The notes beneath the pieces are model-generated. The model made no database searches, was not told the origin of the DNA, and worked only from the letters and a program-made list of their open reading frames with translations. 64,000 nucleotides of DNA from an uncultured Anaerolineae bacterium (GTDB lineage Bacteria; Chloroflexota; Anaerolineae; J036; Brachytrichaceae): contig CALHLE010000030.1 of assembly GCA_938034415.1 (NCBI GenBank), forward strand, positions 3,708 through 67,707, in the 5' to 3' direction. The translations under genes were made by a program, and so were the position numbers. Each line of letters begins with the position of its first letter. The stretch's first letter is position 1. Of the stretch, positions 54,290 to 55,312 are shown piece by piece.

Positions 54290-55207
54290 CTACTTGATCT
54301 TGCCGATCTGGCGGGCGACGGCCTCGATGTCGGCGTAGTTTTCGTTCTTGGTCTCGATGAACTTTTGCGCGCCGAAGAGGTCGAGGATTTCCTTGTGGGC
54401 TGGGTTGGCGGCGTCCAGCGCAAGGAAGGCCTGTTTGACGCGTTGGATGAAGCCCGCGCCGAACTTCTGCTCCACGTCCGGCCGCACGACCCAGTGGTAG
54501 TCGTAGTATGCCGGCGTGCGCCAGATGACGATGACCTTGTTGGTGTCCACCTCGCCGGCGGCCAGGCGCGACTTCCATACTTGCTCGTTGAGCACGCCGG
54601 CCTCGTAGGTGCCGGCCTCCACCAGCTTGATCGTCTTGTCGTGCGAGCCGGAGAAGCCCGGTTCGCCTTTCAAGTCGGACAGCGCCACGCCGGCCTTGTT
54701 CATGAAGAACTGCGGCATCAACCGGCCCGAGGTGGACGACTCGCTGCCGAAGGTGAACGTGCGGCCTTTGAGCGCGGTCAACCCGCTGATGTCGTCAAAC
54801 GGCTGGATGCCGGCCGCGGCGTTGGCGATGAACACGCTGTGGAAGTTGGCGTCAATATCGCGCTGAATGATGGCCTGCGCGCCGTCCACTTGCAGGCGGG
54901 CCTGAACGCCGGTAAGGCCGCCGAACCAGACCATATCCACATCGCCGGTGCGGAAGGCGTTGACGACGGCCGCGTAATCCGTCACCGGCTTGTAAACCAC
55001 CTGCACGCCGAGCTGTTCCTTCAAGTAGTCGGAAACTTTGCCGTAGAGCCGGTTGAGCTTCTCCGGGTCTTGGTCGGGGATGGCCGAGATGACGAACGTC
55101 TGGGGCTGAGCCGCCTGTCGAGCCGCGGGCGGCGGCGCGGCGCAGGCAGCCAGCGCGGCCGATGCGCATAAAGCAAGCGCGAAACCGATTTTTGATGGTC
55201 GAAACAT
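54290..55207 (-). CDS. Putative selenate ABC transporter substrate-binding lipoprotein (PhnD family)
   Basis: Lipobox LAA|C; AIPDQD, WFGGLTGVQAR, FGSESSTSGRLMP, FSGSHD, YYDYHW match the selenium-associated PhnD-like subfamily; divergent from selD. Confidence 0.85.
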   Translation of the reverse strand: MFRPSKIGFALALCASAALAACAAPPPAARQAAQPQTFVISAIPDQDPEKLNRLYGKVSDYLKEQLGVQVVYKPVTDYAAVVNAFRTGDVDMVWFGGLTGVQARLQVDGAQAIIQRDIDANFHSVFIANAAAGIQPFDDISGLTALKGRTFTFGSESSTSGRLMPQFFMNKAGVALSDLKGEPGFSGSHDKTIKLVEAGTYEAGVLNEQVWKSRLAAGEVDTNKVIVIWRTPAYYDYHWVVRPDVEQKFGAGFIQRVKQAFLALDAANPAHKEILDLFGAQKFIETKNENYADIEAVARQIGKIK

Positions 55208-55312
55208 CGTTGCTCCTTAGATTTGCAAGCGATTAGGGATTGTCAACACGTGCACAAAGCGTCCCTGCGCCAACGTCCCCGCTCGCATGCGCAGGAGCTA
55301 CGATGTGTTCGA
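55199..55312 (-). promoter_or_regulatory. SD/AUG-sequestering stem of the transporter mRNA
   Basis: 55199-55217 and 55293-55312 form an inverted repeat with 18 paired bases, one mismatch and one bulge. Confidence 0.75.

Follow-up and report, generated by a model that had tools for sequence, protein, structure and literature searches.

The question raised by this locus is what the RNA leader in front of a putative selenium transporter operon may sense, and how such a signal might be passed on to the importer. The window, that is, the whole stretch of 64,000 nucleotides that was analyzed, carries the operon on its minus strand and a divergent selD gene beside it (Table 1). The substrate-binding protein falls into TIGR04553, a hypoth_equivalog family for which selenate as substrate is only a curator's hypothesis, and the selenium link of the transporter is a putative one, drawn from this family annotation and from the adjoining selD with its own UGA. 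Read with TGA as U, the selD product matches TIGR00476 at 366.6 bits over residues 8-319. The host genome encodes selA, selB, and tRNA-Sec (selC) as well as the selenocysteine (Sec)-containing selD; a search of the genome for a Sec-containing formate dehydrogenase, which would be a second source of SECIS elements, revealed none with an in-frame stop.

Table 1. Features of the transporter operon, its leader, and the neighboring selD gene (positions in the window)
Feature	Position	Strand	Remarks
Duplicated (fused) PhnE-type permease, 624 aa	51785..53659	-	TIGR01097, 326.5 bits, two matched stretches
PhnC-like ABC ATPase	53491..54273	-	TIGR02315, 252.6 bits, under the cut-off of 266
ABC substrate-binding protein	54290..55207	-	TIGR04553, "putative selenate ABC transporter substrate-binding protein", 370.4 bits, over the cut-off of 250
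SD arm (3' arm of the stem)	55199..55217	-	Shine-Dalgarno (SD) AGGAG 55217-55213, AUG 55207-55205, first three codons of the binding protein
Central domain enclosed by the stem	55225..55290	-	Inner helix 55290-55283/55232-55225 plus apical hairpins; RNAalifold
Anti-SD arm (5' arm of the 18-bp stem)	55293..55312	-	Contains the leader stop UAG, 55300-55298
Leader ORF	55298..55423	-	AUG 55423, MPLNLTHYR, UGA 55396-55394, 31 codons, UAG 55300-55298
C-rich tract of the distal leader ORF, GUCGCCAUCGCUGCCUCCGGCCUUGCC	55321..55347	-	C/G 1.3-2.2 in all Roseilinea-type leaders
SECIS-like hairpin CGGCGCG-CGUGU-CGCGCCG	55362..55380	-	13 nt after UGA, -12.1 kcal/mol
In-frame UGA, proposed Sec codon	55394..55396	-	Codon 10
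Leader Shine-Dalgarno GAGGAGG	55432..55438	-	Spaced 8-13 nt from the leader start; GGAGG(U) does not vary within the genus alignment
TATCAT, -10-like hexamer, likely leader promoter element	55468..55473	-	(T/G)TATCAT in ten of ten genus loci
Divergent selD, itself a selenoprotein	55530..56591	+	In-frame UGA 55581-55583, motif SCAGUAGKL

The stem over the transporter start

On the minus strand, UCGAACACAUCGUAGCUCCU (55312-55293) pairs with AGGAGCAACGAUGUUUCGA (55217-55199) to form 18 bp interrupted by one A.A mismatch and one bulged C, exactly as a preliminary description of this DNA had reported, and RNAduplex assigns the duplex -24.6 kcal/mol. The same description placed the UAG of the leader within the upstream arm, where it is indeed found, and proposed folding of 55470-55190 as a check; the stem appears in both the MFE and the centroid structure of that segment. 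When the SD region was allowed to pair anywhere in the leader, its best duplex scored z = -4.4, and one of 200 dinucleotide shuffles did as well. The stability of the 281-nt leader as a whole is not unusual (z -1.87), and the significance resides in specific helices.

Compensatory changes in homologues, the other check that had been suggested, were found as well. Each of the 17 distinct homologous leaders, which come from four sequence-unrelated Chloroflexota lineages, has an equivalent helix that sequesters the transporter TIR, and many positions of this helix are occupied by two to four types of Watson-Crick pair. For instance, replacement of UAG by UAA is accompanied by C to U in the SD arm, and elsewhere AUGUCU/AGACAU stands in place of AUGUUUCGA/UCGAACACAU. 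RNAalifold analysis of the five closest relatives keeps all pairs of the 18-bp stem. The predicted folds and the covariation support the conclusion that this conserved stem sequesters the SD and AUG of the transporter.

Within the stem, the consensus fold of the same five relatives pairs GCAUGCGA (55290-55283) with UCGCUUGC (55232-55225) and contains three compensatory pairs in the central domain. A second hairpin noted previously, CCUGCGC/GCGCAGG, exists in the sequence but is absent from this consensus, where its place is taken by the pairing just mentioned. The weak CUUUGUG tract noted after that hairpin was not recovered as a terminator, a scan of 55100-55650 having revealed no intrinsic terminator-like site.

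The leader SD and ORF are conserved, TATCAT lies upstream of them, and the stretch down to the transporter gene is free of terminators; transcription may start near TATCAT. In two relatives (L008 and L009) this hexamer is separated from the leader SD by only about 10 nt and is accompanied by a TGG extended -10; a consensus promoter scan of the locus did not call TATCAT as a full -35/-10 promoter. It had also been cautioned that a TTGACA at 55246-55241 might act as an internal promoter, in which case a short or leaderless mRNA without the anti-SD arm would bypass the stem in vivo and the stem would matter little. The hexamer is present and is conserved in seven of the closest sequences, but the scan offers no acceptable -10 at 16-18 nt from it, it sits inside a predicted helix (a weak G.U-rich one of the central domain), and it is absent from the L007, L008, L096, and L094 types, all of which possess the stem. 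Since the strong covariation of the stem further argues that the long transcript is under selection, a bypass of this kind appears very improbable.

A leader reading frame with an early UGA

The homologous leader ORFs comprise 17 distinct sequences from the four lineages, with a UGA at codon 7-10. The codon at the position proposed to be recoded is UGA in every one of them and in each lineage, the base following it is A, G, or C and never U, and the frame remains open beyond it (for 31 more codons here). The two residues preceding the UGA are [YH][RTL] in all leaders except L006, where they are G-R. In 12 of the 13 Roseilinea-type leaders the leader stop lies inside the arm or at most 3 nt before it; in the exception, L096, it lies 20 nt before the arm. 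The C-rich tract is covered by the leader ORF of every variant and can pair, in MFE folds, with the region beside the leader SD; it may function as a rut-like site or as an auto-inhibitor of the leader TIR. A scan of four leader peptides against NCBIfam gave no match. Leader and transporter share a reading frame in four lineages; this was dismissed as coincidence because the frame is broken in L004, L006, and L007.

Bacterial SECIS elements, as typified by E. coli fdhF and the criteria of bSECISearch, have a hairpin some 11 nt after the UGA and an apical loop approximately 16-37 nt from it. By these thresholds, the spacing and stability of the leader hairpin are those of a bacterial SECIS: it begins 11-14 nt after the UGA in all four lineages, and here its loop begins about 20 nt after the UGA. 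The apical loop is invariantly CGUG(U/C) in the 13 Roseilinea-type leaders and so contains the conserved G (GU) expected of such loops; in the distant leaders L020 and L019 it reads GGUA and GCUU, respectively. Alignment of the Roseilinea-type leaders shows 97.8% of the cells of the hairpin paired, against 13-70% in slid control windows, and three of its seven pairs have changes on both sides. The stem-loop following the UGA of selD itself, GGGCGC-CGUGCU-GCGUCC, resembles that of the leader. These sequence features suggest that Sec is inserted at the leader UGA.

The hairpin motif alone, GGCGC..CGUG..GCGCC, is uninformative, since most of its 103 matches across the genome are ARVLR-type coding sequence; two candidate sites among them proved to be ordinary genes. 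Possession of selB, which is also found in the three other leader-bearing genomes (G061-G063), was discarded as a marker separating leader-bearing from leaderless genomes because 19 of 23 have it.

A composite signature was defined by an SD, an AUG, an early UGA, a hairpin at SECIS spacing, and a continued ORF. It occurs in 25 of 173 homologous loci, in every case just upstream of the transporter, and nowhere on the opposite strand of these loci. The whole 2.8-Mb genome yielded a single spurious match, on C53, which lies within a gene on the other strand. An nhmmer search of the 173 loci with the leader profile of the genus matched close relatives only, from which it follows that the other lineages share the architecture and not the sequence. 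Upstream ORFs ending in UGA in Actinomycetota (L051 and L080) were rejected as AUGA start-stop overlaps rather than Sec leaders.

These data also bear on another explanation, namely, that the UGA is an ordinary stop. The leader would then consist of a 9-codon upstream ORF and a hairpin in a structured 5' UTR, and the stem would be opened by a ligand (an unrecognised riboswitch), by a protein such as SelB acting on the hairpin as repressor or activator, by temperature, or by an sRNA. The argument for Sec insertion is indeed one from sequence, and the open frame past the UGA is not statistically striking, frames of 20-35 codons after a stop not being rare in GC-rich DNA and hence making weak evidence for an ORF; yet the UGA recurs in four independent lineages, each time with a hairpin at SECIS spacing, and the full signature is essentially unique to this position. 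The distal leader peptide is not conserved, the substitutions between L001 and L005 being mostly non-synonymous, but nearly all variants have the stop of the read-through frame at the anti-SD arm or directly in front of it. The central domain is structured, and its conservation among the five relatives is partial; between lineages the domain is not conserved. Rfam covariance models gave only chance-level matches in 54900-55900 (E of at least 1.4). An ordinary stop would have a parallel in E. coli, where a SelB-binding SECIS-like element is said to repress translation of selAB. On balance we consider this explanation improbable.

Ribosome position and the sign of regulation

The effect of a translating ribosome was modeled by folding the leader under the constraint of a ribosome footprint. 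In these folds, which represent equilibrium only and ignore kinetics, opening of the transporter SD costs 15.2 kcal/mol at 37 °C in the free leader and 4.9 kcal/mol once a ribosome sits at the leader stop; at 55 °C the corresponding values are 11 and 2.5 kcal/mol. For the ribosome at the stop, a similar drop is predicted in 9 of 11 relatives. With the ribosome at the UGA instead, the cost is unchanged (15.2 versus 15.1 kcal/mol). In L019, L020, and L087, which represent three distant lineages, the leader ORF ends 9-35 nt before the anti-SD, with an intrinsic terminator separating anti-SD from SD. The preliminary description had read the stem as switching transporter translation ON when Sec is made; the constrained folds fit that reading in this lineage, but in L019, L020, and L087 a ribosome at the leader stop leaves the SD closed. 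For the lineage studied here, the modeled energies thus point to a switch that is ON with Sec.

We surmise, with about even confidence, that a ribosome-operated leader switch, with the stem as its output, reads the decoding of selenocysteine and turns the importer ON when Sec is available. The operon mRNA would begin near TATCAT, and the strong SD would load ribosomes onto a short ORF having UGA as its tenth codon. Where the SelB.GTP.Sec-tRNA(Sec) complex is available, Sec would be inserted and the C-rich distal leader translated; the read-through ribosome would terminate at the UAG in the 5' arm and unzip the stem, and the SD and AUG of the binding protein would be exposed, so that translation of the importer is turned ON. 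Ribosomes covering the C-rich RNA may also block premature termination of transcription. Where Sec-tRNA(Sec) is lacking, RF2 would release the peptide at the UGA and the arm would never be reached; left without a ribosome, it would keep the stem closed and the importer OFF, except for leak. Sec insertion is inefficient in bacteria, which counts against this scheme. Importer synthesis would track the capacity to make Sec because the leader ORF, which can be finished only by reading UGA as Sec, ends in the arm of the stem, and the cell probably sets its importer synthesis by its own capacity to make selenocysteine. Together with the adjoining Sec-containing selD, such a switch could constitute a self-reinforcing, selenium-induced regulon.

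A trace-element importer that its own product induces would run counter to the usual homeostasis, which speaks against the ON sign; in Methanococcus maripaludis selenium depletion leads to an increase in putative selenium transporters (PMC11097638). The same Sec-sensing leader could operate with the opposite sign, providing negative feedback in the manner of trp or erm leaders and matching the physiology expected of a scavenging importer (PMC11097638). When Sec is scarce, the ribosome would pause at the UGA, only 6-9 codons into the ORF, and would thereby block re-initiation, and the leader SD region or another upstream segment would capture the arm, leaving the importer ON; when Sec is plentiful, ribosomes would strip that pairing, and the arm would close on the transporter SD. 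The position of the UGA, always near the start and preceded by the conserved [YH][RTL], recalls arrest-type leaders. In most Roseilinea-type leaders, no upstream segment pairs better with the arm than the leader TIR, which resembles that of the transporter. In L019, L020, and L087, the strongest upstream pairing of the arm involves the final part of the leader ORF, and the anti-SD is followed by canonical terminators. Of these three, only L087 shows a competing fold: placing a ribosome at its leader stop raises the probability of the terminator from 0.31 in the free RNA to 0.87. The terminators of L019 and L020 always form.

The pairings demanded by this alternative are, however, not distinguishable from chance. 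The best upstream partners of the arm, which might have provided an ermC-like anti-anti-SD, match dinucleotide shuffles (z mostly about 0) and are 5-10 kcal/mol weaker than the pairing of anti-SD with SD. Three trp- and erm-like arrangements were rejected because their energies do not surpass those of shuffles: one in which the leader TIR serves as a decoy, one with segment 2 at the end of the leader ORF, and one with a downstream G-rich hairpin. The unchanged cost of SD opening with a ribosome at the UGA in this lineage speaks against a pause there as the signal. Furthermore, the leader stop lies within the arm, so that a read-through ribosome would occupy the very segment needed to pair with the SD, and the distal leader ORF is pyrimidine-rich here, as is the arm, with which it therefore cannot pair. 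Negative feedback through this leader thus seems unlikely, though less so than an ordinary stop.

Comparison with known systems

A search of the literature for a leader or attenuator based on Sec decoding found none. Our somewhat favored interpretation is that the locus encodes a natural sensor of selenium status of an unpublished type, namely, a cis-acting leader which converts the capacity to decode UGA (Sec-tRNA(Sec) and SelB) into translation of an ABC importer. If true, the TIGR04553 ABC system would be tied to selenium by regulation, beyond gene neighborhood, which would provide independent regulatory evidence for it as the specific prokaryotic selenium importer, unidentified according to recent reviews. 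With its Sec-containing SelD, the organism would run selenium use as a self-reinforcing ON switch, and the apparent positive sign raises the question of a bistable commitment to selenium use. Ribosome-mediated attenuation would gain a new input, a recoded stop dependent on a trans factor and an RNA element, and the leader could serve as a compact selenium biosensor.

Close parallels in architecture are cat-86/cmlA and ermC, which have, as predicted here, an SD-led short ORF upstream of a stem sequestering the SD and AUG of the regulated gene, and in which, as would be the case here, the position of the ribosome on the leader decides the state of the stem. In cat/cmlA, as here, leader codons form part of the 5' arm of the sequestering stem. 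These systems sense antibiotic-induced stalling, and the drug-stalled ribosome opens the stem, whereas the signal proposed here is that a SECIS hairpin causes UGA to be read as selenocysteine, and a terminating ribosome at the leader stop would do the opening. The counterpart here of the alternative pairing of ermC lacks statistical support. As in trpL, hisL, and pheL, the supply of a charged tRNA would be read by a leader ribosome and relayed through RNA structure. The intrinsic terminator of those leaders is absent from 55100-55650, although present in L019, L020, and L087; the output here would instead be the SD-sequestering stem, and the regulatory codon a recoded stop requiring SelB and a SECIS. 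No pairing equivalent to the trp antiterminator exceeds chance, and the thermodynamically supported sign is opposite to that of trp.

In 2002, Thanbichler and Bock reportedly described how SelB, by binding to a SECIS-like element that E. coli selAB mRNA carries in its 5' UTR, represses initiation. This element shares with the present leader a SECIS-type hairpin that regulates selenium-pathway genes rather than making a selenoenzyme, but it involves no decoded UGA and acts through SelB-bound repression, whereas here ribosome transit through the leader ORF is proposed. In the long-range coat-replicase pairing of phage MS2, an upstream terminating ribosome unfolds a downstream TIR (translational coupling). 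The two cases would have in common that a ribosome translating or terminating within one arm of a long-range helix uncovers the SD of a further cistron; the upstream cistron here is a 41-codon leader whose completion would need Sec insertion, and the coupled transporter start lies 93 nt downstream of the leader stop.

In Treponema primitia, the transcription of fdhF(Sec) depends on selenium and is coupled to translation, an illustration of how UGA decoding can control downstream expression (PMC3892789). There, as proposed here, passage through the UGA and SECIS sets downstream expression, which is ON with selenium (PMC3892789). In fdhF(Sec) the UGA belongs to the coding sequence of the enzyme itself and the polarity acts on the same gene, whereas here it would belong to a dedicated, non-functional leader ORF wired to the TIR-sequestering stem of another gene.

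Stem at the transporter start

The preliminary description had placed the SD and start codon of the transporter in a stem, with the leader's UAG inside its upstream arm. Both parts of this claim hold: on the minus strand the anti-SD arm (UCGAACACAUCGUAGCUCCU), within which the UAG lies, pairs with the SD arm (AGGAGCAACGAUGUUUCGA) over 18 bp, interrupted by a single A.A mismatch and a bulged C (-24.6 kcal/mol). Folding of 55470-55190, a check proposed at the time, returned the stem in both the MFE and centroid structures. When the SD region was compared with the whole leader the best duplex gave z = -4.4, and 1 of 200 dinucleotide shuffles was equally good. 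RNAalifold analysis of the five closest sequences kept 18/18 stem pairs and revealed an additional inner helix; the second hairpin formerly proposed (CCUGCGC/GCGCAGG) is absent from this consensus. A search of 55100-55650 detected neither a sigma-70-type promoter, which the TTGACA had been suspected of representing, nor a terminator-like site, so the suggested weak terminator is likewise not borne out.

The upstream arm pairs with the transporter SD in 17/17 distinct leaders, and in most of them the AUG and first codons are paired too. The compensatory changes anticipated in homologues were found: in an AUG-anchored register, between two and four kinds of Watson-Crick pair occur at many stem positions. 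The SD arm covaries with the leader stop at its third base (UAG/C, UAG/U, UAA/U), the change of first codons from AUGUUUCGA to AUGUCU is accompanied by an arm change from UCGAACACAU to AGACAU, and in the type represented by homologous locus L007 the helix is lengthened by CUUUCGA:UCGAAAG. The stem is thus confirmed, and covariation backs it well.

The ORF which starts at the SD arm matches TIGR04553 ("putative selenate ABC transporter substrate-binding protein") at 370 bits, against a cut-off of 250, and is followed by a PhnC-like ATPase and a duplicated PhnE permease. Because the permease ORF overlaps the ATPase gene by some 170 nt, its true start is probably further downstream than the listed GTG. 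The substrate assignment of TIGR04553 may fail for parts of the clade. Most of the TIGR04553-like binding proteins at 61-72% identity (loci L021-L090) are cyanobacterial, with neither an adjacent selD nor a UGA leader. Full-length SelD is obtained only when its in-frame UGA is read as Sec, a plain ORF call giving a truncated gene with a start at 55617 only; selB, selA and tRNA-Sec are carried by the genome.

Features of the leader, the transporter operon and selD, with UGA leaders of other lineages
Feature	Position	Strand	Remarks
Permease, fused double PhnE, 624 aa	51785-53659	-	Listed GTG start overlaps ATPase gene by ~170 nt
PhnC-like ATPase	53491-54273	-	Between binding-protein gene and permease
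SD (downstream) arm	55217-55199	-	SD AGGAG 55217-55213, AUG 55207-55205, first three codons
Inner helix partners	55290-55283 with 55232-55225	-	RNAalifold, five closest sequences
Anti-SD (upstream) arm	55312-55293	-	Holds leader stop UAG 55300-55298
Hairpin CGGCGCG-CGUGU-CGCGCCG	55380-55362	-	13 nt past leader UGA
In-frame UGA	55396-55394	-	After nine codons MPLNLTHYR
Leader ORF	AUG 55423 to UAG 55300-55298	-	Nine codons MPLNLTHYR, UGA, 31 open codons
Leader SD (strong)	55438-55432	-	Upstream of AUG 55423
TATCAT	55473-55468	-	Conserved, upstream of leader SD
selD	55530-56591	+	GTG start 55530; in-frame UGA 55581-55583, motif SCAGUAGKL
UGA leaders of other lineages	L019 ~587-770; L020 ~2242-2460; L087 ~2167-2430		Upstream of same transporter family

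Leader ORF and putative SECIS

The hairpin downstream of the leader UGA is a putative SECIS, with SelB binding to it and Sec insertion at the UGA as predictions. Its distance from the UGA is that required by bacterial SECIS elements. In an alignment of 13 Roseilinea-type sequences (close relatives of this locus), 97.8% of cells are paired, 3/7 pairs have changed on both sides (a G-C/G-U/A-U series) and the loop CGUG(U/C) is invariant; sliding the partner strand as a control reduces pairing to 13-70%. By itself the hairpin motif is not diagnostic, being common across this GC-rich genome. An apical stem-loop past the UGA of selD (GGGCGC-CGUGCU-GCGUCC) is almost identical in sequence to leader hairpins of the L008/L096 type, and lies 26 nt from its UGA versus 13 nt in the leader. 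This resemblance suggests that the leader hairpin may derive from that of selD.

In all four lineages which possess the leader, the residue pair ahead of the UGA is [Y/H]-[R/T/L] (G-R in L006) in otherwise dissimilar sequences, and the following base is never U. These features hint at a nascent-peptide or codon-context role in the competition between RF2 and SelB.

The distal ORF of Roseilinea-type leaders is C-rich (C/G 1.3-2.2), which makes its pairing with the pyrimidine-rich arm unlikely; it resembles RNA that might attract Rho when untranslated. In all of these leaders the distal ORF contains a C-rich tract with CCUC (55321-55347, minus strand; equivalents in L003-L100) complementary to the spacer beside the SD of the leader itself (in L100, GAGGACGG:CCGUCCUC). 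The tract may auto-inhibit initiation of the leader, or may serve as a rut-like site.

Distribution among related loci

Comparison of 173 loci encoding relatives of the binding protein revealed 13 distinct Roseilinea-type leaders retaining the entire arrangement (binding proteins 81-100% identical), and the leader accompanies the transporter even where selD is not adjacent. It also occurs in three further Chloroflexota lineages (L019/L102/L107, L020/L103 and L087), for which nhmmer detected no nucleotide similarity to Roseilinea-type leaders. Their parts follow the order SD and start, 6-9 codons ending Y-T, UGA, hairpin 11 nt on, 19-26 codons, a pyrimidine tract able to base-pair with the transporter SD, and the transporter gene. 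Such parts were combined into a signature (SD, start, 4-11 residues, [YH][RTL], UGA, hairpin 9-16 nt on, at least 15 open codons), which is present in 25/173 loci, always directly upstream of the transporter, and never on the opposite strand of these loci. Across the entire 2.8-Mb genome, its sole match besides this leader falls within an unrelated gene. Actinomycetota loci L051 and L080 were rejected as Sec leaders: their 17-codon ORF ends in a UGA overlapping the transporter AUG (AUGA), which is ordinary start-stop coupling.

Direction of the proposed switch

It is quite probable that a Sec-decoding leader gates the initiation region of the transporter. With a 27-nt ribosome footprint forced unpaired, the computed cost of opening the SD-to-AUG segment at 37 C is 15.2 kcal/mol for free RNA, 15.1 with a ribosome at the UGA and 4.9 with one at the leader stop; at 55 C it falls from 11.3 (free) to 2.5 (stop). 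The same behavior is seen in constrained folds of 9/11 Roseilinea-type leaders. In 12/13 variants the leader stop falls within the arm, at the 3′-end of the arm or no more than 3 nt from its 5′-end, the exception being L096 (20 nt upstream). Of the segments upstream of the arm, the one that pairs with it best is, for most Roseilinea-type leaders, the initiation region of the leader itself; in the other lineages it is the terminal part of the leader ORF. The trp- or erm-like alternative pairings were all weaker than the SD pairing, and none was better than shuffled sequence. In L007 and L100 the leader and transporter initiation regions share AUCGAAAGGAG, with either of which the arm could pair, at a level no better than chance upon shuffling.

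Sec-inserting ribosomes would thus read through the UGA and open the stem, and the importer would be made when Sec can be made. This sign, already favored in the preliminary description, is the best-supported reading for this lineage, at about even odds overall. It runs counter to the usual logic of nutrient importers and to the behavior of putative Se transporters in Methanococcus (PMC11097638). Since the adjacent Sec-containing selD is itself a positive-feedback design, a selenium-induced regulon is not absurd.

L019, L020 and L087 do not fit this reading. They have a canonical intrinsic terminator nested between anti-SD and SD, and their leader stop precedes the anti-SD by 9-35 nt. Nor is the distal ORF C-rich in these three, G being in excess over C (strongly in L019 and L087, marginally in L020). 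At equilibrium their SD stays closed in every modeled ribosome state; placing a ribosome at the stop favors the terminator in L087 (0.31 to 0.87), and in L019 and L020 the terminator forms in every modeled state. Either the sensor of these lineages is the same but wired differently, under kinetic control, or one of the two classes works by a mechanism that equilibrium folding does not capture.

Neither full-text literature searches nor reviews turned up a leader ORF described as sensing Sec decoding, or an identified specific Se importer. The nearest known systems include the translational attenuation of cat, cmlA and ermC, trp-type attenuators, and the SECIS-like repressor site carried by E. 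coli selAB. Another is found in Treponema primitia, where the control of fdhF(Sec) by Se is coupled to translation (PMC3892789).
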